DNA of 64,000 bases. It comes from a virus. Its lineage: Duplodnaviria > Caudoviricetes. The notes below the pieces were generated by a model that did not search any database, was not told the origin of the DNA, and worked only from the letters and a program-made list of their open reading frames with translations. The stretch lies in IMG/VR virus record IMGVR_UViG_3300021400_003144; one strand, given 5' to 3'. Made by a program: the position numbers and the translations under genes. Positions 28,330 to 61,436 of the stretch are shown here, one piece after another; position 1 is the stretch's first letter; each line of letters starts with the position of its first letter.

Positions 28330-28362
28330 AGTATTGAAATTTAAGTAAATATGTGTTATAAT
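28330..28362 (+). promoter_or_regulatory. SigA-type promoter, nearest candidate for transcribing array 1
   Basis: AGTA-TTGAAA, 17 nt ending GTGT, TATAAT. Confidence 0.8.
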
Positions 28363-30094: not shown

Positions 30095-30128
30095 TTATTA
30101 AATGAAGCAGGGAGAGGAAAGCTTATAT

Positions 30129-30353
30129 ATGAGTAGACACTATACCGTTGAGGTTGAGAAGTTATGTAGAGTATCTGATGTTGAAGCAGATACTCCAAAA
30201 CAAGCCTTGAGAAATGTAATAAGAGAACATGGTATATGTAATGGTTCAATAAGAAGTATTAGTGCAGACACTAAGACTAACTATAGAAAAGCTAAAGTTA
30301 GTTTATTGGGTGGAACTAGAGAGTCTATTAGTTATTTTGAGGTTTCATGGTAG
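30129..30353 (+). CDS. Small hypothetical protein
   Basis: GAGG RBS just after the last repeat; ORF track starts at 30102. Confidence 0.6.
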   Translation: MSRHYTVEVEKLCRVSDVEADTPKQALRNVIREHGICNGSIRSISADTKTNYRKAKVSLLGGTRESISYFEVSW

Positions 30354-30387
30354 CAAAAATCATAGTCACTGATATAGAAAGGAAAAT

Positions 30388-30915
30388 ATGAAAATCAAGA
30401 AAGGGAATATAAAAATAAATGACTTTATGATAAGCCTAAATACTCTTGTAATAGACTATGGTGACCATCAGTATAAATTTAAGATGAAAGAAGTAGTTAA
30501 AGAAGCATTTGGTGAACTTTATGTACCAACTAATACAATAAAGCAGGATAAAGAAACTAAAAAACATAATATAATCATATCTTATGCTGATTTATCTGGA
30601 CTCATAGACTCAAATAAAATAGAAGAAGCTATAGAAGTAGACAAGGAATGTAAAAGTGATATGGAGCAGATAGCATTTTATGACACAGCATTTGCATTCA
30701 TGTGTGGACCATTTATAGTTGCTTTTATGCTTTGGACAGTAAATTTCTTATTAAATTATGTGTTTAAAGGTATAGGGCATACTGGAGAGATGATTATAAT
30801 TGGTATTGTAGTGATTTTTTATCTAATAATATTCGGAATGTTAACTGTTTCTTTTGAAGGTGCCCTAGTAAAAGAGATAAAAGACACTATTAAAAGTCTT
30901 TCATCAGATATTTAG
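30388..30915 (+). CDS. Membrane protein
   Basis: Two C-terminal TM helices. Confidence 0.65.
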   Translation: MKIKKGNIKINDFMISLNTLVIDYGDHQYKFKMKEVVKEAFGELYVPTNTIKQDKETKKHNIIISYADLSGLIDSNKIEEAIEVDKECKSDMEQIAFYDTAFAFMCGPFIVAFMLWTVNFLLNYVFKGIGHTGEMIIIGIVVIFYLIIFGMLTVSFEGALVKEIKDTIKSLSSDI

Positions 30916-30943
30916 AGTGAATAAACATTGGGGGGATATAAAA

Positions 30944-32221
30944 ATGGGCAAGGGTAAGAAAATTTTAGCAGTAGAAATACCTATTGGGTTAATGGCAGTT
31001 AGTATGATGCTTAATGCTTGTAATAATCAAGTTGTAGCTAATGAAAGTAAGAGTGAGACAATGAATATTGCGAAAGTGACAGATGTAAATGAAGCTTTGT
31101 TTAATCTTAGTAAAAATGTGATACAAAGCGAATTGTCAGATACATCAGATAATATAATGGTGTCACCTGTATCTATAGAAAGGTGCTTTGCTTTAGCTAT
31201 AGAGGGAGCAAATGGAGAGACAAGAGAACAGTTAGAAAAAGCAATATATTCTAACTTACCTTTTGAAGATACAGCATATAAGATAGGAACTATTTGTGAT
31301 AAGCTAAGTTACTATGATGTAGATGCATATGATGATAAGAATAATCATATAGATGAGACTAGAAAGGCATTTAAAGTTGCTAATTCTATATGGATAAACT
31401 CAGATGCAGATGATTTTAAGATTAAGACTGAATATAAGGATAGAATAGGCATCAATTATAAAGCTGAAGAGTTTGAGATACCTTTTTCAGATGGACCTAA
31501 TCCTATAAATAATTGGGTAAATACAAATACAGATGGAATGATACCCAGTATATTAAATGATTTAACACCTGATGATATGACTGTACTTGTAAATGCAACT
31601 ATGTTTAAGGGTGAATGGGTTGATAAGTTTGAGAATGATTCACCTGAGAAAAACTTTACAGACTCAGATGGAAGTATAAAGCAAGTTGACTTTATGAGAA
31701 GCTATAAGGATGATAGATATGTACAGATAAAGGATAGAGATGCATTTGTAAAGCAATATAATAACAAGTTTATGTATATTGGAATACTACCTAAAGAAAA
31801 TGAAAGCACTAATGAACTTCTTAAGGAACTAGAATATAAAGATATAATCAAAGGACTTGGAAATAATACCAATTATGATTTAGTTTTAGACTTTCCTAAA
31901 TATAAGTATGAAAGCTCAATGAGTTTAGTAAAAGTATTTAAGCAACTTGGTGTAGATTTAGCATTTGGAAATGAAGCTGATTTCTCTAATATGAGTGATA
32001 AGCCTTTACATATTTCAGATGTTCTACATAAGACCTATGTAGAACTTGATGAAAATGGAACTGAAGCAGCTGCTGTGACAGCTATAACAATGGATTTGAA
32101 TAGTGCAGCTATTGAGCAAACACCTGTTAAAGAGCTAGTATTTAATAGACCATTTATTTATATGATAGTATCCACTAATGATAAGTTGCCGGTCTTTGTA
32201 GGAGTAGTAAATAAATTATAA
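30944..32221 (+). CDS. Serpin (serine protease inhibitor), lipoprotein
   Basis: NIMVSPVSI, GANGET, INNWV..NTDGMI, NATMFKGEW, hinge ENGTEAAAVT, FNRPFIY; lipobox LNAC. Confidence 0.95.
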   Translation: MGKGKKILAVEIPIGLMAVSMMLNACNNQVVANESKSETMNIAKVTDVNEALFNLSKNVIQSELSDTSDNIMVSPVSIERCFALAIEGANGETREQLEKAIYSNLPFEDTAYKIGTICDKLSYYDVDAYDDKNNHIDETRKAFKVANSIWINSDADDFKIKTEYKDRIGINYKAEEFEIPFSDGPNPINNWVNTNTDGMIPSILNDLTPDDMTVLVNATMFKGEWVDKFENDSPEKNFTDSDGSIKQVDFMRSYKDDRYVQIKDRDAFVKQYNNKFMYIGILPKENESTNELLKELEYKDIIKGLGNNTNYDLVLDFPKYKYESSMSLVKVFKQLGVDLAFGNEADFSNMSDKPLHISDVLHKTYVELDENGTEAAAVTAITMDLNSAAIEQTPVKELVFNRPFIYMIVSTNDKLPVFVGVVNKL

Positions 32222-32243
32222 AAATAAATTAGAGGTTTAACAA

Positions 32244-32711
32244 ATGGGAACAGATAAGAAAAAGACTACCAGTGAGAGAAATAGAGAGTACTATCAGAAG
32301 CATAAGAAAGAGATTAATGAGAGACATAGAAAATACTACTTAGAGCATAAAGAAGAGATTCATAAGAAAAACAGAGAGTATAGAGAGGCTCATAAAGAGG
32401 AAAAAGCAGCTTATCAGAGAGAATATTATGCTAAGAATAAAGATAGGGTAAAACAAATAGTTTATAAGAGCATAAAGAATAGACCTGATAAGATTAAAGA
32501 AGCTAATAAGAAATATTATGAGAAGCATAAAGAAGAAATAAAAGAACATAATAAAAAGTATTATGAGCAGCATAGAGAAGAAATAATAGCTAAGAATACT
32601 GAATACTATGAAAAACATAAAGAAGAGCTGAAAGAGAAGAGAAAGAGCAGAAGTGGAAGTGCTACAAGCAGAGAGAAGCTTAAGCTATTTGAAAAGTACA
32701 TGGCTGGTTGA
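32244..32711 (+). CDS. Lys/Glu-rich repeat protein (YYEKHKEEI repeats)
   Basis: About 7 imperfect 15-residue repeats. Confidence 0.65.
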   Translation: MGTDKKKTTSERNREYYQKHKKEINERHRKYYLEHKEEIHKKNREYREAHKEEKAAYQREYYAKNKDRVKQIVYKSIKNRPDKIKEANKKYYEKHKEEIKEHNKKYYEQHREEIIAKNTEYYEKHKEELKEKRKSRSGSATSREKLKLFEKYMAG

Positions 32712-32729
32712 GTTTAAAGAGGTTCAGAT

Positions 32730-33767
32730 ATGAAGAAATATGTAAAAGCTTATGATTCAAAGACTAAGAGTTGGGTAACAGTAGAGGAAATTGCTAGGGC
32801 TGATAGATATGATAAGCCTCGTTATTATTCAGATTGTAACTATGATAGTGACTCTGGAGAAATACTTACTTATGTAAAAGAAAGTAAAGAACTTTATGGA
32901 AAAACAAGTGGCAAAGCTTATGTGAGATGTGCACACTTCAGAAAGTATTGTAGCAATAGTGCAAAAGAGAGGGCACAGATAAATAAATATGTTGCTACTC
33001 AGGAAGAGCATATTAATAAAATAGCTAAGAGCATAGGAAAGAAAATTAAGCAGATTAAAATTCCAGATATAAAGACAAGTGTTCTTGGGGAAGAGTTTGA
33101 TTTATTTAATAGTGGCTATGTTGATGTGACCTATGTAACTACAATAAAAGAAGGTGAGTCAAGTAGTGAAATACCAACACTTGTGTTTGCAACAAAGTAT
33201 CTTGGTGTTGTAGAAACAATCTATGTAAGATTGTTCTATAACAATGAGATGTCTGAGGATAGACATAAGTGGTTACTTGATAAAGGTATAAATTGTTTGG
33301 AAGTAGACATAAGTGAATTGAGAGCAGACATTAAGCAATCATATAAGACATTAAGTAATAAGATATTGAAAGAGATAGTATATAACAGCTATTGGATTTC
33401 AAATGCTTATAAAAAGTCATTTGAAGCTGAAAGAGATATGACAATACTTGATATAAATAATAAAAATATCTTAAAGAAGTCTGATTATGGCAAAGGAAAA
33501 GAGAATAGGTGCTACTTCTTTAAAGACAAGTACAATGAGTTAGCAGGAAGTGATTGTTTAAGTGTAGGAAAAAGACATTCAGTTGATATTTATGAATGTA
33601 AGGATTGTAAGAAGTGCATCTGTATTAAAGATATAGATAGTGATGATATTAATAATGTCCATGTGTATTGTTTTAAAGGTGATATACCTGAGACAAAGTT
33701 AAACATTATAAAGACTATAAATGAAATAAAGCAGACAGCTTTAAGATATTTAGAGCAGAAGTATTAA
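32730..33767 (+). CDS. Hypothetical protein, possibly a CoiA-like nuclease fold
   Basis: AHFR and GINCLEVDIS motifs, C-terminal Cys cluster; family call is weak. Confidence 0.4.
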   Translation: MKKYVKAYDSKTKSWVTVEEIARADRYDKPRYYSDCNYDSDSGEILTYVKESKELYGKTSGKAYVRCAHFRKYCSNSAKERAQINKYVATQEEHINKIAKSIGKKIKQIKIPDIKTSVLGEEFDLFNSGYVDVTYVTTIKEGESSSEIPTLVFATKYLGVVETIYVRLFYNNEMSEDRHKWLLDKGINCLEVDISELRADIKQSYKTLSNKILKEIVYNSYWISNAYKKSFEAERDMTILDINNKNILKKSDYGKGKENRCYFFKDKYNELAGSDCLSVGKRHSVDIYECKDCKKCICIKDIDSDDINNVHVYCFKGDIPETKLNIIKTINEIKQTALRYLEQKY

Positions 33768-33774
33768 GGATGAG

Positions 33775-34302
33775 ATGTTTATTAGTATGGATAGGATAAA
33801 TAAATTGAATATATTAAACAAATTAAAGATTGCAGTAATGATTATTATGTTAATTATTCCATTCATGTTTCTTTCATTTTGTGTCAATAATATTAAAATT
33901 TATGACTTAAAATCAAATGAAATGGTCATTAATAGAAATTCTATTCTAGTTAGTATAGATGGAGAAAAATATACTTTTAATCCTGATAATAGATTAGAAT
34001 ACAAGTTGATGGAGAAAGATCATTCTGTAGAGTATATTGTAGCTGAAAAAGGTGCTGGTAATACTCATAAGTTTAAGTCACAGTCTAATTTCATTGATGA
34101 TAAAGGTGAAATTAAAGATTTTATCAATAAAGATGGAACAGATATAAGTGCTGATAGACTTAAGGAAATTGATAGAACAGCATTAAATAATTTTACAATA
34201 CAAATTACATTTGCTTGTGCTATAATGGTGATAGTGGTATTCATATTATTAAAGTTCATATCATTTTTAGATAAAATTCAACTTAAGGAAATATTGAAGT
34301 AA
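33775..34302 (+). CDS. Two-TM membrane protein (paralogue of 34315)
   Basis: IYDLKSNE, EKDHSVEYIV, FIDDKG, KDGTDIS..RLKEI. Confidence 0.7.
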   Translation: MFISMDRINKLNILNKLKIAVMIIMLIIPFMFLSFCVNNIKIYDLKSNEMVINRNSILVSIDGEKYTFNPDNRLEYKLMEKDHSVEYIVAEKGAGNTHKFKSQSNFIDDKGEIKDFINKDGTDISADRLKEIDRTALNNFTIQITFACAIMVIVVFILLKFISFLDKIQLKEILK

Positions 34303-34314
34303 GGGGTAAGAACT

Positions 34315-34869
34315 ATGACTGAGCTAATAGAAGAGAAGGGCAGAGATGAATCAGAGAAATTTGGATTAGAAAGATGGTTAGACAGTTCTAGTCTTTTAGC
34401 ATATATAATAGCAATGATGTTCGTACTTACACCATTTTTTGTTATATTTCATGAAATGGTGAATGGGAACATATATAACTTAAATTCAAATGAGATATTG
34501 GTTTATGAACATGCAGTGGTTAATGTGGATGGAGTTGAGTCTCTTTTCCTAAAGTCTAATAGGTCTGAATACAAGGCATCTGAAAAAGACCATGATGTAG
34601 AATATATAGTAGGTAATAGACATGATGGCAAACTTTATAACTTCAATTCACAATGTTTTATAGATGAAAATGGTAGGTTTAAACAGTTTATCCATAAGGA
34701 CGGAACAGATTTAAGTGGTGAGAGACTTAAAGAAATTGAGTTTACATTTGTTAAAAACTCATTTGCAATAATGTTTAGAATATATACTATTGGAATTGTG
34801 TTAGTGCTAGTAATAGCAAAGGTTACAGAAATGATAGATAGAAAAAGACTTACAGGAAAGTGGTTATAA
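34315..34869 (+). CDS. Two-TM membrane protein (paralogue of 33775)
   Basis: IYNLNSNE, EKDHDVEYIV, FIDENG, KDGTDLS..RLKEI. Confidence 0.7.
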   Translation: MTELIEEKGRDESEKFGLERWLDSSSLLAYIIAMMFVLTPFFVIFHEMVNGNIYNLNSNEILVYEHAVVNVDGVESLFLKSNRSEYKASEKDHDVEYIVGNRHDGKLYNFNSQCFIDENGRFKQFIHKDGTDLSGERLKEIEFTFVKNSFAIMFRIYTIGIVLVLVIAKVTEMIDRKRLTGKWL

Positions 34870-34884
34870 CATAAATAAGGTTGA

Positions 34885-35224
34885 TAGAACCCTTTTATAG
34901 GGATTAACTGATATTAGCTAAAGGTAAGCATTTGAATTTGCTCCTTTTAGCATTGGAACCCTGTTATAGGGATTGAAACATACAGCACTATACATTGCAG
35001 AAATTTTCACAGATAGAACCCTGTTATAGGGATTAAATGCTTCAGATAGATTTGTAGAAGTCTAGAATTGTATAGATAGAACCCTTGTAATAGGGATTGA
35101 GTGTTTATAGACAAGGTAGTACCTTTAGGAATATGTTTAAACCCTGTTATAGGGATTGACTTATGATTGTACAATCAACGTGTAAGTATTAAGTATTTAA
35201 ACTGAACCCTGTTATAGGGATTAG
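34885..35224 (+). CRISPR. CRISPR array 2: 6 repeats, 5 spacers
   Basis: Mostly AACCCTGTTATAGGGATT; the second repeat ends in canonical ATTGAAAC (to 34979). Confidence 0.88.
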
Positions 35225-35225
35225 A

Positions 35226-35264
35226 TACACCTTTAAATCAAATGGTTTAAAGGTGTAATTTTTT
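35226..35264 (+). terminator. Rho-independent terminator closing array 2
   Basis: TACACCTTTAAA / TTTAAAGGTGTA plus T6. Confidence 0.85.
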
Positions 35265-35277
35265 GTGTAAAAATATG

Positions 35278-35306
35278 TTGACAAAATTATAAAAAAGTGA
35301 TATGAT
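35278..35306 (+). promoter_or_regulatory. Promoter of the cas operon
   Basis: TTGACA, 17 nt ending GTGA, TATGAT. Confidence 0.8.
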
Positions 35307-35349
35307 ATATAAAGAAATTAAGAGTTATGTAACTCAGAAAGGATAATGA

Positions 35350-37227
35350 ATGGTAGACGAAAAATGTAAAGAGCTTTATATAGCAGGTCTACTCCATGAT
35401 GTAGGTAAGTATATACATAAGACTAATGGCAATAAGGCTTCTCATGAGATATTATCTCAGTTGTTTATTTTAGATAATCCTGAGATTTGTATTGGGGCTG
35501 ATGTTGAGAAAATAGCTAACATTGTAGCCAATCATCATGACAGAGGAAAGTATGATAAAAGCTTTGTAGGAAATTTAAAGATAACTCCTGATAAAGTGGT
35601 GTCTGCTGAACTTTGTAAGAAAGCTTATGATAACTATAAGTTGGACTGCTATAAGAGTGAGATAGACATTATTAAAAAGGCTGATAGCTTATCAGCTTCA
35701 TCAGACAGAGCATCTGAGACTGGAGAGTCAGGAAATGGAACAAGTGCTCCATATGCTCCACTAATATCTCCTATTGGAAAAGTATTCAATAAGAGATTAG
35801 CAGTAAGACATGGTAATTCTTACTGTGTTTACAACTTTAGTGGGGATACTGATACTAAAGAAGTTATCATGGAGCTTGATAAGAATTGTGATGAACATAT
35901 AGAGAGTTCCTTTGAGTCTTTCATGAATGACATAAAGGCTATAAAGAGTCTGAATGACCTTGATGATATTCTGAAAAAGCATTGGTCAACTGTCAATGCC
36001 AATACATGGAGACCTAAGGGAGAATCTTTAGGAAACACAACTACTTCCTTGTATGACCATAGTAAAACTACAGCGGCTTTGGCTGTAGGGGCATATCTAA
36101 ATAAATGTGCTGGTGTGGCTGTGGATGATATGTTTGTTTACAGAGTAGTATACAATGGAAATAACAGAAGTCTTGAGGATATTGTTGATAATCTTTTGAA
36201 TGAGATTGGACTATCTCAGTTACATGTAATAAGTTCTACTGATGATGAGGTTTATGCAATTATACCTTATATAAAGTCATTAGAATTTGTAGAAGGTCTG
36301 AGTAAAGAGAACATAATATCTTTTAAGGATTTTGGAGAGACAATAGACTACTTTGTAGCTAAGCATTGGAAATTTAAGGGTTGCAGAGATTCTTTTAGAG
36401 ATAGACTTGGAGAGTGTCAGTATGGTATAACTAAAGTCTTAGGTAAAGTAGATGCAGGCATTGGAGCTGATACTTATATAGCAGATAGACTTGATAGTAA
36501 GTTTATAGGTGGCTATGTAATAGATGGTTATGACTATATACTTGAACATGTACTAACTGAGAATGACTCCATTAGTAAGCTGAGTACTACCTTTAGAATA
36601 TTTGAAGCATTTAATAGAGAAGTAACTAAACTTCTTGACAACAAGGGTAAAATGGTACTCAAGTCTGAACTTGATAAGACTATTTATTCAGCTGATAACA
36701 TTGAGGAAGTGCATAGGATTGAAGTAGAGATACAGTCAATATTTGAGAAGTACTTCGGAGATGCTACAGGGTTGTACTTTACATACTCTAAGTATGACAG
36801 ATATAGCAATACAGTAGAAATGTTGGACAGAGAATTTAATACTAGAGGTGCTAGTCTGAATATTGAGAAGAAGCTTCAGAATGGAGGTCTGTACACTACA
36901 GTTCTTATAGATACTAAGAGATATAAGATAAATAGTTTAAAGATATATAATGAATATGTTGGGTATCTGAGTAAGTGTGATAAATCCTTCTTGTATAAAG
37001 CAAAGCAGATGTATGATGAGCTGTTTAAGTATAACATTGATAAAGACCCTATACATCTTGTAGCTAAGTCAAGACTGTACTATATGAAGTCAAAGGCAGA
37101 TGGAAATAAGGTAAATGTACTTAATGAGATATATAAGTGTGCATTTGATTCTGCAAAAGGTCAGATTAGTGATAATGCATACATAATATATGAAGCATTA
37201 AAAAATGTGTTAACCAATGTGAAGTAA
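35350..37227 (+). CDS. cas10: Divergent, shortened Cas10/Csm1: HD nuclease intact, cyclase GGDD absent
   Basis: AGLLHDVGK, ANHH, KADSLSASSDR, SLYDHSKTTAALA are Csm1 hallmarks; no GGDD anywhere in 625 aa. Confidence 0.85.
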   Translation: MVDEKCKELYIAGLLHDVGKYIHKTNGNKASHEILSQLFILDNPEICIGADVEKIANIVANHHDRGKYDKSFVGNLKITPDKVVSAELCKKAYDNYKLDCYKSEIDIIKKADSLSASSDRASETGESGNGTSAPYAPLISPIGKVFNKRLAVRHGNSYCVYNFSGDTDTKEVIMELDKNCDEHIESSFESFMNDIKAIKSLNDLDDILKKHWSTVNANTWRPKGESLGNTTTSLYDHSKTTAALAVGAYLNKCAGVAVDDMFVYRVVYNGNNRSLEDIVDNLLNEIGLSQLHVISSTDDEVYAIIPYIKSLEFVEGLSKENIISFKDFGETIDYFVAKHWKFKGCRDSFRDRLGECQYGITKVLGKVDAGIGADTYIADRLDSKFIGGYVIDGYDYILEHVLTENDSISKLSTTFRIFEAFNREVTKLLDNKGKMVLKSELDKTIYSADNIEEVHRIEVEIQSIFEKYFGDATGLYFTYSKYDRYSNTVEMLDREFNTRGASLNIEKKLQNGGLYTTVLIDTKRYKINSLKIYNEYVGYLSKCDKSFLYKAKQMYDELFKYNIDKDPIHLVAKSRLYYMKSKADGNKVNVLNEIYKCAFDSAKGQISDNAYIIYEALKNVLTNVK

Positions 37228-37236
37228 GGAGTATAC

Positions 37237-37719
37237 ATGGACGATAATTATTTAAAGGAAATCAAGTCTGGATATACAGACAATGGTGTAGCTAAGCTGA
37301 GTCTGATTGATGGATATCCTCAGAAGTTAGCTAAGGAGTTTAATGAAGCAACTCCAATGTTGTCAACAAAGCAATCAAGAAGTATCTTTGATACTGTGAA
37401 TGGACTTGAGGTTAAGCTTCGTAGAAAGTCAGTATCATTTGATGAAGTCAAGATTGAACTTGGACTACTTAAGTCTAGAATAAATGATAAGGTTAATAAG
37501 GGAAGTATCCCTAAGGTATTCTTTGAGTTCTTTGAGGAAAATATTAAAGCCATTAAGAATGAAAAGGATTTACAGGTGTTTAAGATTCATCTTGAGTCAA
37601 TTTGTAACTATCTCAAGGATGATAAGCAGACTGGAAATAACGGAAGCTACAATAAGGGTACAGGCTATAATGGAAATTATAGACCTAGAACAAATGGATA
37701 TAATAACAATAGAAGATGA
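37237..37719 (+). CDS. csm2: Csm2 (Cas11) small subunit
   Basis: LSTKQSRSIFD and F..HLESICNY resemble Csm2 (T.Q.R.FF, F..F.EA...Y); lies between cas10 and csm3. Confidence 0.8.
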   Translation: MDDNYLKEIKSGYTDNGVAKLSLIDGYPQKLAKEFNEATPMLSTKQSRSIFDTVNGLEVKLRRKSVSFDEVKIELGLLKSRINDKVNKGSIPKVFFEFFEENIKAIKNEKDLQVFKIHLESICNYLKDDKQTGNNGSYNKGTGYNGNYRPRTNGYNNNRR

Positions 37720-37736
37720 AAGTGAGGATATAAATT

Positions 37737-38375
37737 ATGATTAAGGAGCAGATTAAGATTACAGGTGTACTTACAACAGAGTCAGGTATACATATTGGTG
37801 GTACTAAGTCAGACTTAGGAATTGGTTCTATGGACAATCCGGTTGTTAGAGATGCTCTTACAAATAGACCTTATATTCCTGGTTCATCCATTAAGGGAAA
37901 GATGAGAAGTATGTTTGAGCTTAGTGGTTTTGCTAAGGGCAAGACATTACCTTGTGGCTGTGGTGATAAGGATTGTATCGTATGCAAGCTCTTTGGTGCT
38001 CATAGAAATACCAAGTCTGAAGCAGGTCAGACAAGAGTAATGTTCAGAGATGCTTATTTATCACCAGAGTTTGAGAATCTTGATAACACTATTGAAGTTA
38101 AGACTGAGACAGCTATTGATAGAAGGACTGGTACAGCTCAGAATGGTTCTCTGAGACAGAGTGAGAGAGTTGCAGCAGGTGTCAATTTCAACTATGAGAT
38201 TAGCATTCTTGTATGCGATGGAGACAATGCTGATGAGCTTAGGGCTATGGTTGAGAATGGTCTTAGAATGATTGAGGCTACAGGTCTTGGTGGTAAGGTA
38301 TCAGCTGGATATGGTAAGGTTAACTTCAATATTGGTGCTGATTCTTATAAGGTAGAAACTAGGAAGTTTAATTAA
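37737..38375 (+). CDS. csm3: Csm3 (Cas7) backbone RNase
   Basis: GIHIGG, IGSMDNPV (catalytic Asp kept), PYIPGSSIKGKMRS, Cys cluster, ETAIDR, GLGGKVSAGYGKV. Confidence 0.95.
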   Translation: MIKEQIKITGVLTTESGIHIGGTKSDLGIGSMDNPVVRDALTNRPYIPGSSIKGKMRSMFELSGFAKGKTLPCGCGDKDCIVCKLFGAHRNTKSEAGQTRVMFRDAYLSPEFENLDNTIEVKTETAIDRRTGTAQNGSLRQSERVAAGVNFNYEISILVCDGDNADELRAMVENGLRMIEATGLGGKVSAGYGKVNFNIGADSYKVETRKFN

Positions 38376-38387
38376 AGAGGTGTACAG

Positions 38388-39089
38388 GTGTTATATAAAA
38401 TAGAACTTCAACAGAATACGGCTACAATAGGTAATGTTGTAGCCAATACATTATTTGGGGCTTTTCTAACAGCTTATTCAACTATATATACAGTTGATAA
38501 GGACATGATAGATGATATTGTATTATCTGATTTATTTTATAATAACATCTTACCTAAGGGTGTTATTAATAATAAAACAGTGTTCTCAAAGCCTTTTGAA
38601 CATACTCAGATAGAAATGTCAAGAGCTCTTATAGCAAGAGATAATGAATCAACTAATGTTGTAAATAATACTGTTGGTAATATTGATAAGAAATGTTCAT
38701 TCTTTATTAGTACTAAGTTACTTGATAAGAATGACATTGAGGAAATAGTCAAGCTTATGTGTGAGTTTGGTATAGGCAAGTGGAGAAATGTTGGTAAAGG
38801 TCAATTTGAATTTAAGAGCATAGAGGAATATGTACCAAAGACAGATGTAAAGAGATTTGTATGTTTAAGTAGTTTTATTCCGGACTGTGATATAAACGAT
38901 TATGACATCAGTTCTTTAGGTTATACAATTAGAGATGCCTATGCTACCAATGGTATTAAACAGAAGCAGACTATAATGCTTCTGACAGGAACAAGTTTCA
39001 GAACATTCAGAGAAGTTGTTGGAAAGCATGTATATGATGAGAATAGCAATACTTATATACATGGTAAATCAATAGTGATTGGAGTTTAA
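38388..39089 (+). CDS. csm4: Short Csm4 (Cas5) subunit
   Basis: NTLFGAF, LSDLF, glycine loop GIGKWRNVGKGQF. Confidence 0.8.
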   Translation: MLYKIELQQNTATIGNVVANTLFGAFLTAYSTIYTVDKDMIDDIVLSDLFYNNILPKGVINNKTVFSKPFEHTQIEMSRALIARDNESTNVVNNTVGNIDKKCSFFISTKLLDKNDIEEIVKLMCEFGIGKWRNVGKGQFEFKSIEEYVPKTDVKRFVCLSSFIPDCDINDYDISSLGYTIRDAYATNGIKQKQTIMLLTGTSFRTFREVVGKHVYDENSNTYIHGKSIVIGV

Positions 39090-39090
39090 G

Positions 39091-39717
39091 ATGGTTTATA
39101 GATTAGAAAAACTTATTTCAAGTGGAGAAAAAGCAACTAAGGATTTAGGTATTCTTAGCAATATGATATCTAATGCAGAGAATGTGCATGGAATCCTTGG
39201 AGAGCTTTTTAACTTAGAGAATGAGCAGAACTGGAGAGCTAATCATCATATTTTATACAGAAGAGAGACAAATAAGACTTGTGAATTTATTGTTAGATCT
39301 GATGTAGAAATTGATATGAATAAGGCTAAAGAGCTTGGTTTCAGTGTAAAGACAGAAAAAGAAGTTCCAATGACTGGTGTTGTAAAAATCAGACTTGCAG
39401 CGGCTACCTTTAGAACAGAGAAAGGCTCATCAAGTCGTAATAGAAAAGCTATTAAGCTTCAGGATGATAGAATTAACTGGATTAAGTATAAGTTATCCAG
39501 TAAGGGTGAATGTGAAGTTTATGATGTAAATGAAGTAGGCAAGGTAATGAATTTCATGTCTCATAAGGATACAGCTAATGGGCAGGTAATGCTTGAGGGT
39601 TATGATTATGAGGTTAGTCTTAAGGTCAAGGATTCAGAAGGGTTTAAAAAGCTTGTAGAGAATGGTGTAGGACCCAATAAAAACTATGGGTTTGGAATGA
39701 TAGTCTGTAGTGAATAA
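39091..39717 (+). CDS. cas6: Cas6 endoribonuclease of the Cas6e (Cse3/CasE)-like type
   Basis: H...ILYR, IRLAA, NWI..K, L.V.D...F..LVENGVGPNKNYGFGMI; ATG 39091 after GGAG (ORF track start 39079). Confidence 0.8.
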   Translation: MVYRLEKLISSGEKATKDLGILSNMISNAENVHGILGELFNLENEQNWRANHHILYRRETNKTCEFIVRSDVEIDMNKAKELGFSVKTEKEVPMTGVVKIRLAAATFRTEKGSSSRNRKAIKLQDDRINWIKYKLSSKGECEVYDVNEVGKVMNFMSHKDTANGQVMLEGYDYEVSLKVKDSEGFKKLVENGVGPNKNYGFGMIVCSE

Positions 39718-39736
39718 TGATAGTGATTGAACAGAA

Positions 39737-39765
39737 TTAACCTAGACTTATGTAGTCTAGGTTAA
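39737..39765 (+). terminator. Perfect 12-bp hairpin abutting array 3
   Basis: TTAACCTAGACT-TATGT-AGTCTAGGTTAA; no U tract; overlaps the first repeat. Confidence 0.5.
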
Positions 39766-40147
39766 ACCCTTATAATGGGGATTGTATATTGAAAGCATAT
39801 AAGTTTATGAATGCTCTTCCAATTAGAACCCTTATACAGGGATTAAATGTTGATGAACTCTTCCATTTCGTTGAAGGGTTTGAGAGAACCCTTGTGACAT
39901 GGATTGATACATTTGATTCTCCTTTATTCTCTATGTAGAGAACCCTTGTGACAGGGATTGATACATTTGGTAGTGACTTTAATTCTTTAAGCAATGAATA
40001 TCTGAACCCTTGTAATAGGGATTGAATTACTTTGATTTTAGCAATAAACTCAATACTTAGATCTAGAACCCTTTAATAGGGATTGCATTAAAAGCTTTTC
40101 TGCTAGTTACATTACAATATAGGGAGAACCCTTTTATAGGGATTGTA
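39762..40147 (+). CRISPR. CRISPR array 3: 7 repeats, 6 spacers
   Basis: Repeats at 39762, 39824, 39884, 39938, 40002, 40064, 40124. Confidence 0.88.
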
Positions 40148-40168
40148 TTAAGCATAGGAGGTGTATAT

Positions 40169-40876
40169 TTGAATAGAATTTTAAAAATAATAGTCATAAC
40201 TATCTTTAGTTTTATTGGAATATCAGTAATGAGCATAATTCTTTTAATAGGTGGAATACAGCTATTTGTACTCGGATACAACGGAAGTATTCCTGATGTT
40301 GAAGAGAGACCAAAGATTATTGCTCATGAACTAGGGAAGAAATACGGAGATAAGTTCGAAGTACTTAGTTGTGAGCAAGTAAATCTTGGTAGTTACAAGG
40401 TTGCTAAGCACGCAAATATTGGTGAGGCTAAGTGTTTGTCAGATGGAATTAAGTTTAATTATCAAGTAGATTTGAGATGTAGAAAAGATTTATGTGATAA
40501 TTACATTGGATTATTGAATGAACCAGTAATAATGGAGGATATAAAAGAGTTATTAAATGAGAATAACTTAGAAGAATATTTTTATAACTTAGAATTAGAT
40601 ATGAATTATTCATATGAAGCAAAGACATTAGCTGAGTATAAAGAAGATGAAAACATAGTAGTAAAAGTTGATACAGAGGTATATGATTCTGAGGATGCAG
40701 AAAACTATTATAGACTTTTTCATTTATTAAAGGACAATGGGTATGTATTTGATGCTAAGTTAAGAGACAGTGATAATAAAACATATCTAAGTGGTAGACC
40801 TTCAGATACAGATAAAGAAGCATATATAACTGAAGAAAGATTCAGGAATAAAATGGAAGATATAGGAATATACTAA
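40169..40876 (+). CDS. Membrane-anchored protein lying between arrays 3 and 4
   Basis: AGGAGG RBS, TTG start, N-terminal TM, L..KYG..FEV and DNY motifs. Confidence 0.7.
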   Translation: MNRILKIIVITIFSFIGISVMSIILLIGGIQLFVLGYNGSIPDVEERPKIIAHELGKKYGDKFEVLSCEQVNLGSYKVAKHANIGEAKCLSDGIKFNYQVDLRCRKDLCDNYIGLLNEPVIMEDIKELLNENNLEEYFYNLELDMNYSYEAKTLAEYKEDENIVVKVDTEVYDSEDAENYYRLFHLLKDNGYVFDAKLRDSDNKTYLSGRPSDTDKEAYITEERFRNKMEDIGIY

Positions 40877-40900
40877 TGGTGATTTAGTATGTTCTGTGAT

Positions 40901-41049
40901 AAGAACCCTTTTATAGGGATTGATACTTGTAAATTTTATTCAACATACACATTTTAGAAATATTCGTGCTGAACCCTTTTATAGGGATTGTATAATCATA
41001 ACTTCAGAGTTTTCAAGGGCACAGTTTGAACCCTTTTATAGGGATTGGT
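40901..41049 (+). CRISPR. CRISPR mini-array 4: 3 repeats, 2 spacers
   Basis: Three identical cores GAACCCTTTTATAGGGATTG. Confidence 0.85.
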
Positions 41050-41056
41050 GAGCTAT

Positions 41057-41111
41057 AAATAAGTTGGTATAGTACTAGGAAATTAATCTTAGGCTATACC
41101 AACTTATTTTT
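41057..41111 (+). terminator. Rho-independent terminator
   Basis: AAATAAGTTGGTATAG / CTATACCAACTTATTT. Confidence 0.8.
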
Positions 41112-41129
41112 GTGTAAAAATTTTAAATT

Positions 41130-41162
41130 AGTATTGATTTTTATAGATAAAGGTGTTATAAT
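41130..41162 (+). promoter_or_regulatory. SigA-type promoter (recurrent motif)
   Basis: AGTA-TTGATT, 17 nt ending GTGT, TATAAT. Confidence 0.78.
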
Positions 41163-41193
41163 ATATTATATAAAATGTATTTGGAGGTAAAAG

Positions 41194-43431
41194 ATGAGAG
41201 TACTTTTATTACTTAGAGGAGCTCCTGGGTGTGGAAAATCAACATTTATTGATTATAATGGTCTTAGACCTTATGCATTATCTGCTGATGAAATTAGGTT
41301 ACTGTGTCAATCTCCTCAGCAAACACCTGATGGTTCTGTTCAGATTGGGGTAAATCATGAGGAAAAGACCTGGCGTATCTTATTTGATTTGCTTGAAGCT
41401 CGTATGGAGAGTGGAGAGTTTACTATTATAGATGCTACGAACTCTAAAACATCTGAAATGAACAGATATAAAGAGATGGCAGATACATACAGATATAGAA
41501 TGTACTGTGTAGATTTTACAGACTTGCCTATTGAAGAGTGTAAAAGACGTAATGCAGGCAGAGAGCCTCTTAAGAGAGTTCCTGATGAAGCAATAGACAA
41601 GATGTATGCTAGGTTTAAGACTCAGAAGATACCTAGTGGTATCAAGGTAATTAAGCCTAGTGAACTTAGTACAATCTGGATGAAGCCTATTGACTTCTCT
41701 AAGTATAATAAGATAGTTCATATTGGAGATATACATGGATGCTATACAGCTTTAAAGGAATACTTTGATAAGAATGATATAGCTGATGAAAATACCTTTT
41801 ATATCTTTACTGGAGATTATATAGACAGAGGTATTGAGAATGTGGAAGTTATGAATTTCCTCTTTGAAGCAGCTAAGAGAAAGAATGTATTTCTTCTTGA
41901 GGGAAATCATGACAGATCTATTCAGATTTATGGTCATGGTGGTGCTTCAAGAAACAAAGAGTTCGAGTTTGGAACTAGGAAGCAGTTCGAGGATGCTCAT
42001 ATAGATACCAAGGAGCTTAGAAATCTTTATAGAAGATTTGGACAGTGTGCTTATTATACATATGATGATAAGACAGTGCTGGTATGCCATGGTGGAGTAG
42101 CTACTGTTCCTGATAACATAACTAAGTTAGCTACATGTCAGTTAATTAATGGTGTAGGCAAGTTTAGTGATGCAGATACTGTTGAAGATACTTGGATGAA
42201 CACTACTGAGAATAATATGTATCAGATACATGGACATAGAAATACTAAAATGAGTCCTATACAGTCAAGAGATAGAGTGTTTAATCTTGATGGTGCTGTA
42301 GAACATGGTGGTGAGCTTAGAATAGTAGAGCTTACTCATGATGGGTTTAAGTGTATAGGTATTAAGAATACAGTCTTTGCAGAAGATGCAAGCTTAGAGA
42401 ATATGTCTGAGTCAAGTGAGGTTGGAGCAAATGATACTGTAGCTGACTTGATTCTTAAGCTGAGAGCTGATAAAAAGAACATTGAAGAAAAGAACTTTGG
42501 ACATATAAGTTCCTTTAACTTTACAAGAGATGCCTTTATAAACAAAGATAATTGGAATAGCAGAACTGTAAAAGCTAGAGGCTTATATATTGATGTAGAT
42601 AAGCAGAAGATTGCAGCTAGGTCATTTGATAAGTTCTTTAATGTAAATGAAATGCCATTTACTAAGTTTGATATGCTTAAGAACAAGCTTAAATTCCCAG
42701 TGAAAGCCTATGTAAAAGAAAATGGTTTCCTAGGTATTGTAGCATATGATGAATATGGTGACTATGAGGATAACCTGATTGTAACAAGTAAGTCAAGCAT
42801 AACTGGAGATTTTTCAGGCTGGTTAAGAGATATGCTGAACAGAAAGACAGAGTATGATACTCGTAAGAAGATGGCTGAGTTCTGTAAGGCTAATGATTGT
42901 AGCTTGGTATTTGAATGTGTAGACATGGGTAATGACCCTCATATCATTGAATATCCTGAGTCTGAGCTGTATCTGCTTGCTTGTGTAAATAATGAGATTG
43001 AGTTCAAGCAGATGAGCTATAATAAGCTTGAGAAGTTAGGAAGAGAGCTTGGACTTAAGGTTAAGACATTGGCTTATACTCTTAATAATTGGAGTGAGTT
43101 CTATGATTGGTATACAGAGGTCAATGCTGATGACTATAAGTTTAATGATAGAATCATTGAGGGTTTTGTAATTGAAGATGCTTCAGGATTTATGACAAAG
43201 ATTAAGCTTAGCTACTATCAGTTCTGGAAACACATGAGAGCTGTAGCTAGAGAAACATTACGCTATGGTTATATAAGAAAAACTGGTGCATTGACAGATG
43301 AAACATCTAATATGTTCTATGGATTCTGTAGAAATCTATATAATGAGGCAGGAAGTCCTGTTATGAGAGACCTTATACCTAGAGATATAGTCTATCTCAG
43401 AAAGAGATTCTATGATAGTTTAAAGAAGTAA
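41194..43431 (+). CDS. Polynucleotide kinase-phosphatase / RNA ligase fusion (RNA repair)
   Basis: GAPGCGKST and IDATN kinase; GDIHG, GDYIDRG, GNHD phosphoesterase; KFFN, KENG, FE, EGFV, K.K ligase motifs. Confidence 0.9.
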   Translation: MRVLLLLRGAPGCGKSTFIDYNGLRPYALSADEIRLLCQSPQQTPDGSVQIGVNHEEKTWRILFDLLEARMESGEFTIIDATNSKTSEMNRYKEMADTYRYRMYCVDFTDLPIEECKRRNAGREPLKRVPDEAIDKMYARFKTQKIPSGIKVIKPSELSTIWMKPIDFSKYNKIVHIGDIHGCYTALKEYFDKNDIADENTFYIFTGDYIDRGIENVEVMNFLFEAAKRKNVFLLEGNHDRSIQIYGHGGASRNKEFEFGTRKQFEDAHIDTKELRNLYRRFGQCAYYTYDDKTVLVCHGGVATVPDNITKLATCQLINGVGKFSDADTVEDTWMNTTENNMYQIHGHRNTKMSPIQSRDRVFNLDGAVEHGGELRIVELTHDGFKCIGIKNTVFAEDASLENMSESSEVGANDTVADLILKLRADKKNIEEKNFGHISSFNFTRDAFINKDNWNSRTVKARGLYIDVDKQKIAARSFDKFFNVNEMPFTKFDMLKNKLKFPVKAYVKENGFLGIVAYDEYGDYEDNLIVTSKSSITGDFSGWLRDMLNRKTEYDTRKKMAEFCKANDCSLVFECVDMGNDPHIIEYPESELYLLACVNNEIEFKQMSYNKLEKLGRELGLKVKTLAYTLNNWSEFYDWYTEVNADDYKFNDRIIEGFVIEDASGFMTKIKLSYYQFWKHMRAVARETLRYGYIRKTGALTDETSNMFYGFCRNLYNEAGSPVMRDLIPRDIVYLRKRFYDSLKK

Positions 43432-43518
43432 GATGATGTAAAGATTGTGGTCTTGTTATGAAATTAAATTGAACATTGTTTCATAACAAGACCATTTTTA
43501 GATTTAGGGTAGGACATT

Positions 43519-43809
43519 ATGAATAAGGCATTGTTGAAAAAGAGAATAGTAATTGGAATGTTGATATTTGGACTATTGCCTTTTATGCTAATAGCAGGTT
43601 GCTTGATATATGATGCTTTTGATGGTGTAGCTGAGTTTAGTCTATTCATTCCACCTAATAAATGGTACTATGGGTTGGATGCAATAAGGTATGAGTTATT
43701 CTGGGTGTGGGTATTTATGTGTGCATATTGGTATATAAGTATTCCTTGGGTTGTTATATTTATAGCAATTCCTATTGGTTATATTCTATTTATAAGGAGT
43801 AAGGAATGA
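43519..43809 (+). CDS. Small membrane protein
   Basis: Hydrophobic 96 aa ORF. Confidence 0.6.
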   Translation: MNKALLKKRIVIGMLIFGLLPFMLIAGCLIYDAFDGVAEFSLFIPPNKWYYGLDAIRYELFWVWVFMCAYWYISIPWVVIFIAIPIGYILFIRSKE

Positions 43810-44270
43810 AAATAAAAGTAAGAGATATCATGGTTGGCTTAATAATGGGAGTTATGTTATTTTATATAGATATCGTAATGTATGATATTTATTCAAAGAG
43901 TGAGATAAGTGACCATTTAAGTGAAACAGAGTTTTTACTTAGGGAAAATAATGTTGGTTTAAGTGTAGTTACTAGAAATGAAGAAAAGAAAGCTGACCTT
44001 GATGATTTAAGTCTGTATGAAATATTGGAAGAAACAGGTAAGATAAAGTATAATCTTAAAGTTGGTGATAAAACATATGAATTACAGAGTATAGCTGATA
44101 AAGTTGTTAATGATGATGTAATAAGCCTAGAAGAAATTACTGATTCTAGAAGAAAAGAAATAAGTGACATGGTAGGTAAGTTTGATAGCATGTGGGGCAA
44201 TGTTACTATATTTTCAATACTGTTAGGATTAATAGTTGGTACATTTGCATCAGTACGAGGATTAATATAA
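43806..44270 (+). CDS. Two-TM membrane protein (paralogue of 44306)
   Basis: DLDDL, IKY.L..G.K.YEL.SI.DK, ISL.E.TD.RRKE.SD. Confidence 0.7.
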   Translation: MKIKVRDIMVGLIMGVMLFYIDIVMYDIYSKSEISDHLSETEFLLRENNVGLSVVTRNEEKKADLDDLSLYEILEETGKIKYNLKVGDKTYELQSIADKVVNDDVISLEEITDSRRKEISDMVGKFDSMWGNVTIFSILLGLIVGTFASVRGLI

Positions 44271-44305
44271 AAGATAGCTTGAACATTTGATATGGGGGAT
44301 AAACA

Positions 44306-44836
44306 ATGAGTAAAGAGAATTTATCAGTAACTGGGCAAGACATATATATTGGGATTGTATTTGGAGGGTTATGTTCACTAATATTTATAATAGGTTTTGC
44401 ACTTGGAATGCCTATGGACATTAGCAATAAGCTAAATGCATCAGAGTTTTATCTTAGAGGAAATACAAATAAGTTAAACATAATTATGAATGGAGAAACA
44501 GAGGCTGTGGATCTTGATAATTTGACTGTGTATTATAAGTTAGATGAACAAGATGCAGAAAAAGATGCAATAAAGTATGAGCTTATGGCTGGAGAGAAAA
44601 GATATGAGCTGTCAAGTATAAAGGATAAGATTATTGATGGTAAAATAATAAGCTTAGATGAATTTACTGATGCTAGAAGGAAAGAATTAAGTGACTTTAT
44701 AAAAAATGAGTTTAAGAGTATGTATAAATACACATTCATTACGTGGGGATTGGGAGCTGTAGTTGGGGCTATAATAAACATTATACTTAGTTTAAAGGAT
44801 GAGTCAAAGGAAGAATCAAAAAATGGATCTGACTAA
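44306..44836 (+). CDS. Two-TM membrane protein (paralogue of 43806)
   Basis: Same shared motifs. Confidence 0.7.
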   Translation: MSKENLSVTGQDIYIGIVFGGLCSLIFIIGFALGMPMDISNKLNASEFYLRGNTNKLNIIMNGETEAVDLDNLTVYYKLDEQDAEKDAIKYELMAGEKRYELSSIKDKIIDGKIISLDEFTDARRKELSDFIKNEFKSMYKYTFITWGLGAVVGAIINIILSLKDESKEESKNGSD

Positions 44837-45071
44837 ACTAATAACTGACTTTCATACAGGAAAGTGCTTCTGTGCAAAGGGTAAAGATAAGAACTTTAAT
44901 GAAGTATACCTAACCAGATTGAGTAATTTATTGCTTGTAGAAGTTAATAATAGCATAATAGATTTGAATGCAGACTTTGATATAGATAGAAAATCATTGA
45001 TAAGATTGAGAGATAAGCTTATTGAAAATAAAGTTGACATATTAACATTGAATTTTGATAAAGAGGTTTGA
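44823..45071 (+). CDS. Hypothetical protein
   Basis: Overlaps the upstream stop; ORF track start 44799. Confidence 0.55.
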   Translation: MDLTKLITDFHTGKCFCAKGKDKNFNEVYLTRLSNLLLVEVNNSIIDLNADFDIDRKSLIRLRDKLIENKVDILTLNFDKEV

Positions 45072-45080
45072 GAGGTTGAC

Positions 45081-45779
45081 ATGGGTTATACAGATGAGTG
45101 GACATTGGAAAAAATTAAATACTGTATAGATATGTCAAATATGTTTGGTAAGGTATATAAACTAAAAACTGGATGTACTTTAAATATTTTAAATGAAGAT
45201 GTTAGTATACTGAGTGTACCTGATGATGTATATGACATTGGTTATACTTCATTGGCTATTGGAGAATTTGATATACAGTGTAAAACTCTTATAGTAGTTG
45301 GAGGAGTCAATGTTTTTAGTATGAATTATGCTTTTGCTAATAATGTAAGTATAAAAAGAATTGACCTTAGATTCTTTGATATGCAGAAAATATGGAGTAT
45401 GAGTAGTGCATTTGCAGGGTGTATTAATCTAGAAGAGATATTATTTGGGCAGTATGAGTTACATAAATTAAGCTCAATGTCAAGAGCATTTAATGATTGT
45501 AGGTCTTTAAGAGAATTGGATTTGCAATGTGTTTATACAGATGATACTCCAGTAGCAATTGATGCAACATTTGGTAGATGTTATAGGCTAGAGAGATTGA
45601 ATTTAAAGAACATAAGTAATCTAAAATTAGACACTGGAGGTTATTATTATAACTTTTTACATGATTGTGTTAATCTAAAAGAAGTTATCAGTGACAATGA
45701 GATTATTAGTAATGTTTGGAAAAAGCATTTAAAATATATGAAAAACATTAAGGCTGAAAGAGATGCCCTAATGGGTTAA
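45081..45779 (+). CDS. Leucine-rich repeat protein (BspA/DUF285-like)
   Basis: Repeated SM..AF..C..L..LDL. Confidence 0.8.
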   Translation: MGYTDEWTLEKIKYCIDMSNMFGKVYKLKTGCTLNILNEDVSILSVPDDVYDIGYTSLAIGEFDIQCKTLIVVGGVNVFSMNYAFANNVSIKRIDLRFFDMQKIWSMSSAFAGCINLEEILFGQYELHKLSSMSRAFNDCRSLRELDLQCVYTDDTPVAIDATFGRCYRLERLNLKNISNLKLDTGGYYYNFLHDCVNLKEVISDNEIISNVWKKHLKYMKNIKAERDALMG

Positions 45780-45799
45780 AGAAGTTTAAGGGGATTGGC

Positions 45800-46561
45800 A
45801 TGAGTTATACAGATGAATGGACATGTGATAGAATTAAATACATAGCTGAAACATCAAGATGCATGAGTGATGGATACATTATTGATGATGGTGTTACTCT
45901 AAATATTATAAATAAATCTGTTGCTTTAATAGACGTGCATGATAATGTAGCTAAGCTAAAACAATTGTTTTTTGAGATAGAGAGACTTTATAACACTGAG
46001 TGTAAAGTTAGAGAGTTTATGAATAGCTCTGATACAACGATTATAGTGCATGGTGGTCATAATGTTACATCTATGAATAAGTCTTTTAGACTGCATAGAA
46101 TACATATTTCTAATGACAGAGTATACTGTCCTATAAGATTTGACCTCAGATGTTTTGATATGAGAAACGTTAGCCATATGATGAGTACATTTGAGAATTG
46201 TGGTGATACACAGGAGATTTTATTTGGTACTGATAAAGTAAGTAAAATACAAGATATGATGGACACTTTTAGAGATTGCTATTCATTACAAAAGTTAGAC
46301 TTACAGTGTATACATACAGATTGTATAGTACCAGAACTATGGAGAGTATTTGAAAGATGCTATAGTATAGAAGAAATAAACATGCCTAATTTTACTAATG
46401 CAATAATTAATCACTATGGTCAGATATTTGATAACTGCAGAAGTTTAAAGGTTTTGAATTGTCCTAATATAAGGATTAATAAGATTTGGAAAAAAGCTAT
46501 TGAGCATGTAAAAGAATTAGATGCATATTGTGAGTATTATGATTCTATAAATAGAAAATAA
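45800..46561 (+). CDS. Leucine-rich repeat protein, paralogue of 45081
   Basis: Shared M.YTDEWT...IKY start and M...F..C.SL..LDL repeats. Confidence 0.8.
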   Translation: MSYTDEWTCDRIKYIAETSRCMSDGYIIDDGVTLNIINKSVALIDVHDNVAKLKQLFFEIERLYNTECKVREFMNSSDTTIIVHGGHNVTSMNKSFRLHRIHISNDRVYCPIRFDLRCFDMRNVSHMMSTFENCGDTQEILFGTDKVSKIQDMMDTFRDCYSLQKLDLQCIHTDCIVPELWRVFERCYSIEEINMPNFTNAIINHYGQIFDNCRSLKVLNCPNIRINKIWKKAIEHVKELDAYCEYYDSINRK

Positions 46562-50755: not shown

Positions 50756-50837
50756 AGTACCCCTTATAATGGGGATTGAATATATTTTTTATACAGCTCT
50801 TCATCTGTGAAAATAGAACCCTCGTTGGGGATTGAAT
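50756..50837 (+). CRISPR. CRISPR mini-array 5: 2 repeats, 1 spacer
   Basis: ACCCCTTATAATGGGGATTGAAT and GAACCCTCGTTGGGGATTGAAT. Confidence 0.8.
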
Positions 50838-50880
50838 TTATTATAGGTAATAACATTAAGTTTGGGAGGAAAGTTTAAGT

Positions 50881-61411: not shown

Positions 61412-61436
61412 AAAATAACAAATTTAAGGGGGGCAT

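Follow-up and report, generated by a model that had tools for sequence, protein, structure and literature searches.

A gene between CRISPR repeats in a large Caudoviricetes element is probably a passenger of a guide-RNA transcription unit

Viruses are said to carry CRISPR mini-arrays, as well as RNA anti-CRISPRs made of a solitary repeat. In integrons, the cassettes consist of a promoterless open reading frame (ORF) with an attC site, are captured by the tyrosine recombinase IntI and are expressed from the promoter Pc; the attC sites are imperfect palindromes of 57-141 nucleotides (nt) with R'', L'', L' and R' boxes, one per cassette. Nucleases of the Cas6 family (Csy4) are used synthetically to cut operon transcripts into independent messenger RNAs (mRNAs). 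Huge phages and mobile elements, reportedly described by Al-Shayeb et al. 2020, are said to have CRISPR-Cas loci that lack adaptation genes and possess small dispersed arrays. According to Shmakov et al. 2023 (10.1101/2023.03.03.530964), standalone repeats and mini-arrays in cas loci yield regulators resembling CRISPR RNAs (crRNAs). Moreover, Tn7-like array-targeting transposons of cyanobacteria insert into CRISPR arrays (PMC11837452), and the PhiAP1.1 prophage integrates into type II-A repeats (10.1101/2020.10.09.333658). Here we analyse a stretch of 64,000 nt (the window) of IMG/VR virus record IMGVR_UViG_3300021400_003144 (Duplodnaviria; Caudoviricetes), which belongs to an element reported as about 283 kilobases (kb) and in which a gene of 235 codons (ORF235, 40169-40876) stands between two repeat arrays, array 3 and array 4. 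Our results indicate that ORF235 is probably a promoterless passenger in a guide-RNA unit, most likely within a split array, and that cuts by a Cas6e nuclease would also free its mRNA.

The locus resembles the CRISPR loci of huge phages in that a large element carries interference and processing genes, without cas1 or cas2 in view, and several short arrays of one repeat family. It differs from them in having arrays inside operons without a leader of their own, coding genes in spacer-like positions, and a type III-like effector combined with a type I-E-like processing enzyme and repeats. With the standalone repeats and mini-arrays it shares repeats outside a canonical array and beside genes, and a possible regulatory use of repeat-derived RNA; however, the RNAs described there are short and carry partial spacers, whereas here a gene of 708 nt and blocks of 1.7 kb and 4.8 kb lie between full repeats. 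As in the Tn7-like and PhiAP1.1 cases, DNA occupies a fixed array position and the array is in two parts, but those insertions are of kilobase scale and have their own transposase or integrase and ends, whereas the insert here amounts to no more than an ORF and its Shine-Dalgarno sequence, lacking a mobility gene and terminal repeats of its own.

The likeness to integrons lies in promoterless genes of one direction, with hairpin-forming repeats between them and a promoter upstream, as far as consensus scans can tell. In contrast to integrons, neither IntI nor attI was seen in the window, the repeats measure about 24 nt and come in runs of 2-16 with spacers of 30-45 nt, and there is a putative cognate Cas6e. 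In the Csy4 devices a coding sequence is flanked by repeat hairpins, as here, and is released by the nuclease; the devices are engineered, and a natural case would be new. A phage moron is an inserted gene that brings along its promoter and terminator and lies among conserved neighbours. In contrast, ORF235 appears by consensus scans to lack a promoter of its own, and its only terminator, after array 4, would be shared.

Judging by sequence, the repeats are CRISPR repeats, probably in the style of type I-E. The core GAACCCTTTTATAGGGATTG occurs exactly at 40126, 40903, 40971 and 41028 (4 in the window), and 18 matches are found when up to 3 mismatches are allowed, against 0 in each of 100 shuffles. 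A census with the half-sites AACCCT and GGGATTG (up to 2 mismatches together, loop of 4-8 nt) detected 45 distinct repeats, every one of them on the + strand (0 on the - strand), besides a chance-like hit at 15076. All ORFs taken as genes are likewise on the + strand, as are the features described below. Conservation runs from GAACCC to about ATTGAAT (about 24 nt) and comprises a short CCCT...AGGG hairpin, with a stem of just 4-6 base pairs (bp), followed by an ATTGAAT-like handle that differs among repeats (GAAT, GCAT, GTAT or GATA). There are 26 core variants among the 45 repeats. The period is mostly 56-65 nt (about 60 nt), and the spacers within clusters (36 of 30-45 nt and one of 73 nt) include no duplicates; their longest match to other parts of the window does not exceed 16 nt. 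Because the repeats are co-oriented, have a regular period and unique spacers of near-constant length, and lie near cognate cas genes, they form CRISPR arrays. The original prediction, made from the DNA letters, overlooked this CRISPR nature, and also that a matching Cas6e gene ends 47 nt before array 3. A distant blastn search of 39720-41120 against phages gave one 31-nt match inside the ORF (E 0.4), taken as chance.

Array 3 (39764-40149) has 7 repeats with heterogeneous loops, the last of which (40126-40149) has the TTTTAT core of array 4. In array 4 (40903-41051), 2 spacers separate 3 repeats whose TTTTAT cores are identical. There is no room for an AT-rich leader before either array, and no good promoter match was found there.

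The genes upstream of array 3 form an operon of five cas genes. Their predicted products are a Cas10/Csm1-like protein of 625 amino acids (aa) with an HD domain (35350-37227), whose N-terminal part matches Cas10/Csm1 at 68.8 bits, below the NCBIfam cut-off of 170; Csm2 (37237-37719); Csm3 (37737-38375), at 182 bits above the curated cut-off of 90; a Csm4-like protein (38388-39089), at 47.3 bits below the cut-off of 55; and a Cas6e/CasE-like endoribonuclease (39079-39717), the presumed repeat cutter (PF08798, E 7.8e-15; PADLOC Cas6e, E 1.5e-17). The C-terminal half of the last protein aligns to Escherichia coli CasE (E 0.002), and its His37 and glycine-rich loop (G.G..K.YGFG) are invariant in all 6 aligned family members. 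On the strength of these matches, drawn from Pfam, NCBIfam and PADLOC, the operon is a reduced type III-like effector whose last gene encodes a type I-E-like Cas6e. Among the 74 ORFs of the window, Pfam and NCBIfam detected neither a Cas1 nor a Cas2 family. A 12-bp hairpin at 39737-39765, directly after cas6e, has no T-run on the + strand, and its 3' arm reaches into the 5' half of the repeat that opens array 3; the 83-nt stretch that contains it folds at -21.6 kcal/mol (z -3.4). This hairpin could weaken read-through or hide that repeat.

A large protein collection contains 37 relatives of the Cas10-like protein (33-51% identity), of which P0007 and P0008 are closest (50-51%), and two relative loci of the cas operon, L002 and L003 (38% and 34% identity), were found among metagenome contigs; both are too distant for a comparison of synteny outside the operon. 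In L002 the same operon is followed by Cas2e and Cas1e and then by a single array of at least 16 repeats, and in L003 by a single array of 24 repeats. The repeats of both loci end in GGGGATAGAAY, which resembles the type I-E repeat. Neither array holds a coding-strand ORF of 70 aa or more, that is, both are uninterrupted, and neither L002 nor L003 has ORF235 beside its cas operon.

The original prediction had placed the gene tightly between identical cores, and this is borne out by the exact cores at 40126 and 40903. The Shine-Dalgarno sequence AGGAGG (40156-40161) lies 6 nt after the 8-nt handle of the left repeat and 7 nt before the TTG start, which is itself 19 nt past the end of repeat plus handle (40149); the stop codon lies 26 nt before the next core. 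Two homologues, P0044 (42% identity) and P0045 (38%), are full-length, N-terminus included, and since they align from the N-terminus to the end, both the gene and its TTG start are real. A spurious ORF is ruled out by these homologues and the Shine-Dalgarno sequence. An exhaustive HMMER search returned 6 proteins at E <= 0.001, one of them ORF235 itself, and a word-based protein search returned nothing but itself among 271 candidates. No family match was found in Pfam, PHROGs, NCBIfam or PADLOC. The ESM Atlas gave only hypothetical proteins of Bacillota, about as long as ORF235; for some of them, YfjL_N is present in a minority of members, which is a lead only. The AlphaFold model, made with no alignment, has a mean predicted local distance difference test score (pLDDT) of 50.2, with a helix at residues 3-39 (pLDDT 83-90) that is predicted to be an N-terminal membrane anchor. 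In G+C content, G+C content at third codon positions and codon use, ORF235 does not stand out from the rest of the element (z -0.8, -0.8 and +0.4 relative to the 74 ORFs). The insert of 757 nt around ORF235 contains a single ORF and no inverted or direct terminal repeats besides the CRISPR repeats. Both P0044 and another homologue, P0049, list a longest contig of 33,502 nt, and the two may be paralogues on one contig; the contigs that encode P0044, P0045 and P0049 measure 30-33 kb.

The arrangement of signals in the window (32% G+C) suggests that the cas genes, the arrays and ORF235 form one unit. A promoter-like site (TTGACA-17-TATGAT, 35278-35306) matches the consensus at 11/12 positions before the cas operon. 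An intrinsic terminator follows array 4 (41057-41116), with a long hairpin and then UUAUUUUUG (-28.1 kcal/mol, z -6.68; an equally stable fold in 0 of 200 shuffles). The promoter-like site of the next unit (TTGATT-17-TATAAT, 41134-41162, 10/12) lies just beyond. The promoter-like sites at 28334 (28334-28362), 35278, 41134 and 63350 all score 10 or 11/12, whereas the best sigma-70-like match in 39700-40175 scores 8/12; this agrees with the original description of the cargo as promoterless. The proposed unit, a reasoned map, would comprise the promoter at 35278, five cas genes, 7 repeats, ORF235, 3 repeats and the terminator (41057-41109), and would end at about 41110.

Arrays without a leader or promoter of their own would ride inside, or at the 3' ends of, ordinary transcription units. 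The Cas6e enzymes of E. coli and Thermus thermophilus cut the 3' base of each repeat hairpin and leave an 8-nt 5' handle, which is bound by type III complexes. In the case of ORF235, cuts at about 40141/40142 and 40918/40919 would yield an RNA of about 777 nt (about 0.78 kb), a 'giant spacer' that would start with AUUGUAUU, followed after 6 nt by the ribosome-binding site, and would have a repeat hairpin at its end. Because the production of guides needs a cut at every repeat, the same cuts would free the ORF235 message. The arrangement would go back either to the insertion of the gene into a spacer or to the growth or recombination of the array around it. A 1.7-kb trio of genes and a 4.8-kb operon elsewhere in the window would be released likewise.

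That array 3 ends in the loop variant of array 4, as if one array had been split, was already part of the original prediction; the first point is correct, and the cores fit the second. The TTTTAT...ATTG core is limited to four consecutive positions that span ORF235 and is seen in none of the remaining six repeats of array 3. For two repeats picked at random, the probability of having the same core is P = 0.042, and 8 of the 36 neighbouring pairs inside arrays are identical. The preference that the four shared cores give to a single split array over a pair of unrelated ones is about fivefold, which is modest. Some non-coding DNA is left on either side of ORF235, 6 nt from handle to Shine-Dalgarno sequence and 26 nt behind the stop, in total roughly the length of a spacer; it fits a bare Shine-Dalgarno-plus-ORF segment inside a former spacer, which proves nothing. 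A separate 47-kb Logan contig of sequencing run X1 covers 34000-46000 with 0 differences, so the arrangement does not stem from a single faulty assembly; given that X1 probably represents the source sample, this is not independent DNA. An assembly chimera at the repeats was rejected, given that the repeats are shorter than the words of the assembler and the second contig agrees. The type I-E integrase measures about 33 bp. Integration of ORF235 as a 'giant spacer' by Cas1-Cas2 was likewise discarded, on account of this measure and of there being no cas1 in view.

Several points weigh against the reading of ORF235 as a passenger released from a split array. The repeat hairpin is thermodynamically weak, and its minimum-energy fold in a 101-nt context is without the canonical CCCU/AGGG stem, so cutting would depend on recognition by the protein. 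The Cas6e-like protein itself scores 34.7 bits with NCBIfam casE, under the curated cut-off of 45.2. Promoter-like sites are no commoner in this AT-rich DNA than in shuffles (73 against a shuffle mean of 84.4), and the missing match before ORF235 is therefore weak evidence for the absence of a promoter. Two metatranscriptome runs of the same sample (X2 and X3) show nothing on 34000-46000, so we infer co-transcription and cutting rather than observe them. Identical flanking cores occur at 1 of 8 gene-sized gaps, that of ORF235; as the flanks of the other 7 are not identical, the argument for a split array holds for the ORF235 gap only. Finally, the polarity of arrays 3 and 4 is odd, with degenerate repeats nearest the cas genes and the four identical ones at the 3' end, the reverse of L002, and a simple insertion into an ordinary array does not account for it.

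It seems doubtful that ORF235 was there first and that two separate arrays arose or were copied around it, for example by ectopic spacer integration at repeat-like sites or by duplication of array segments, without ever having been one array. Seeding at gene junctions seems to be frequent, given that 9 or 10 clusters of repeats lie at many such junctions in 28-64 kb, and a resident gene would also suit the native composition of ORF235 and the different flanking repeats at 7 of the 8 gaps. However, the confinement of the TTTTAT...ATTG core to four consecutive positions across the gene speaks against this, the window has no cas1 or cas2 to seed arrays (though L002 has Cas1e and Cas2e), and independent seeding does not account for a last repeat only 6 nt from the Shine-Dalgarno sequence. 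A functional coupling appears very unlikely to us. It would have the tagged mRNA cut by Cas6e bound by the type III complex, whose assembly over the first 35-45 nt would cover the Shine-Dalgarno sequence and the start codon, so that the complex competes with ribosomes or triggers trimming and output follows Cas levels. The geometry fits it (handle end at 40149, Shine-Dalgarno sequence at 40156-40161, start at 40169), and a similar layout is seen ahead of the trio and ahead of the operon that follows array 1, but tight packing is common in phage-like genomes anyway, the handle varies between repeats, and the absence of ORF235 beside the cas operon in L002 and L003 means that it is not a conserved partner.

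The original prediction took the repeats for recombination or insertion points, at which promoterless cassettes are gained, lost or swapped through an unseen recombinase or through homologous or annealing recombination between the repeats (about 24 nt) of co-infecting relatives. This we consider quite unlikely, and little in the sequence supports it. Such exchange needs direct, co-oriented repeats, which all 45 are. Bracketing is tight at three places (6-13 nt from handle to Shine-Dalgarno sequence, 9-26 nt from stop to core), ORF235 has identical flanks and looks promoterless, and PMC11837452 and 10.1101/2020.10.09.333658 provide precedents for DNA entering arrays at fixed positions. Both precedents, however, carry integration genes of their own, as described there, whereas no integrase, resolvase or transposase family was found by Pfam at E <= 0.01 among the 74 ORFs, just as the original prediction had seen no recombinase. 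The only related match, weak and below threshold, is that between a Cro/C1-type protein of 76 aa and a helix-turn-helix family of transposases. The element extends for about 220 kb beyond the window, so a recombinase may be encoded there.

Identical flanks at just 1 of 8 gaps, the native composition of ORF235 and the uninterrupted arrays of the distant relatives L002 and L003 also speak against cassettes swapped at repeats. The joints expected of deletions or excised circles were not borne out either: none at repeats, and none between 40145 and 40903, was found in the contigs of X1, the single run in which this DNA was detected; contigs drop rare forms and cannot show them. Three joints in these contigs link repeats of different arrays over sides of 20-23 nt and were taken as cross-mapping. 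Close relatives of the locus were sought in several collections. Megablast of 35000-43500 against phages and plasmids gave no match, as did tblastn of the Cas10-like protein and ORF235 against the same sets. No locus was found among viral contigs by repeat patterns, the Cas6e-like protein, ORF235, a 286-aa gene product of the trio or alignments. The repeat pattern gave one single-copy match among genome contigs, in a Dehalococcoidia metagenome-assembled genome, taken as chance, and across the collections searched no relative locus was closer than 38% identity in Cas10.

Canonical arrays are self-contained, with leader and promoter, whereas here at least nine arrays appear to be run off ordinary operon promoters, with genes between the repeats. 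If Cas6e cuts as proposed, this would be natural processing of mRNAs by a CRISPR nuclease, so far an engineering trick, and would tie the production of guides to the gene expression of the element. It also bears on the birth, splitting and spread of arrays in elements without adaptation genes. If a gene merely landed in a non-essential array, the locus would be a minor curiosity of genome packing. A bolder proposal, which we think unlikely, is that the repeats double as operon punctuation, with Cas6e excising messages of 0.8-4.8 kb as 'giant crRNAs', each having the 8-nt type III tag slightly ahead of the ribosome-binding site; the CRISPR machinery would then shape or gate the expression of the embedded genes, and the co-oriented repeats would serve as portable homology for the swapping of promoterless blocks between related elements. 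A limited search of the open-access literature, which does not prove absence, returned studies of mini-arrays, repeat-like regulators, recombination of arrays and insertions into them, but no report of ordinary genes between CRISPR repeats in one operon, nor of natural processing of mRNAs by Cas6.

The layout of the ORF235 unit is found elsewhere in the window. The promoter-like site at 28334 is followed by two genes, array 1 (29171-30097, 16 repeats), a seven-gene operon of about 4.8 kb (about 30130-34869; ATG 30130 is the most likely start, with GGAGAGG before it), array 2 (34887-35228, 6 repeats; to 35257 with its terminator) and a terminator. The last part of the unit that ends at 63310 consists of an array, a gene, two repeats, a trio of overlapping genes (61437-63131), two repeats and a terminator. 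The mini-array before the trio (61327-61413, 2 repeats) ends 13 nt before the Shine-Dalgarno sequence of the trio, and the two-repeat cluster after it (63141 and a short-loop variant at 63240) is followed by the terminator at 63278-63315. The trio had been said to be bounded by repeats within 26 and 8 bp; a recount gives 27 nt from core end (23 nt from handle end) to ATG and 9 nt from stop to next core, a difference in the counting of ends only. Terminators with a hairpin and T-run lie at about 28301, 35256, 41104, 47441, 48316 and 63310, and repeats directly precede 3 of these 6, namely those after array 2 (35226-35257), array 4 and the 63141/63240 pair. The remaining repeats form a cluster of 6 at 59920-60256, a two-repeat cluster at 50759 and 50816, and a single repeat at 63782.

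Some features of individual repeats and spacers deserve mention. The repeats at 50816-50839 and 63240-63263 have in common the short-loop variant GAACCCT(C/A)GTTGGGGATTG, each time as the last of a two-repeat cluster, and it may be a 'terminal repeat' form. The 73-nt spacer between the repeats at 63141 and 63240 (63165-63226) shows 71% complementarity to the region of the following gene's promoter (63309-63370). The handles TTGAAT, TTGCAT, TTGTAT and TTGATA resemble a -35 hexamer (for example at 40143-40148 and 59938-59943), and a spacer with a well-spaced TATAAT-like box could be an internal promoter, as at 40969-40996 (9/12, with TG).

Directly after the terminator of array 4, the gene at 41194-43431 encodes a Pnkp-like fusion of kinase, phosphoesterase and RNA ligase of 745 aa (phrog_8238, E 1e-210), with tblastn matches in 159 phage records, including SPbeta-like and Staphylococcus phages. 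Pnkp-type enzymes act on 5'-OH and 2',3'-cyclic phosphate ends and heal them; cuts by the Cas6 family leave ends of just this kind. The adjacency of this gene to the array unit may be coincidental. In the trio, which has no PADLOC match, the middle gene (61876-62274) encodes a P-loop-like ESGTGKT motif, read from the DNA, and the first gene has a weak DUF4869 match (E 2.3e-4) that misses the cut-off; a small module based on a nucleoside triphosphatase is one possible reading of the trio. The 4.8-kb block between arrays 1 and 2 contains a serpin gene (30917-32221; PF00079, E 3.6e-74), an unusual cargo for a phage-like element. Away from the arrays, a gene for a coiled-coil protein of 670 aa (56855-58867) has internal 21-nt (heptad) periodic repeats (families D2, D6, D10 and D11). 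The tandem paralogues at 45081-45779 and 45800-46561 match BspA-type leucine-rich repeats and DUF285, and their 5' ends are 85% identical over 47 nt.

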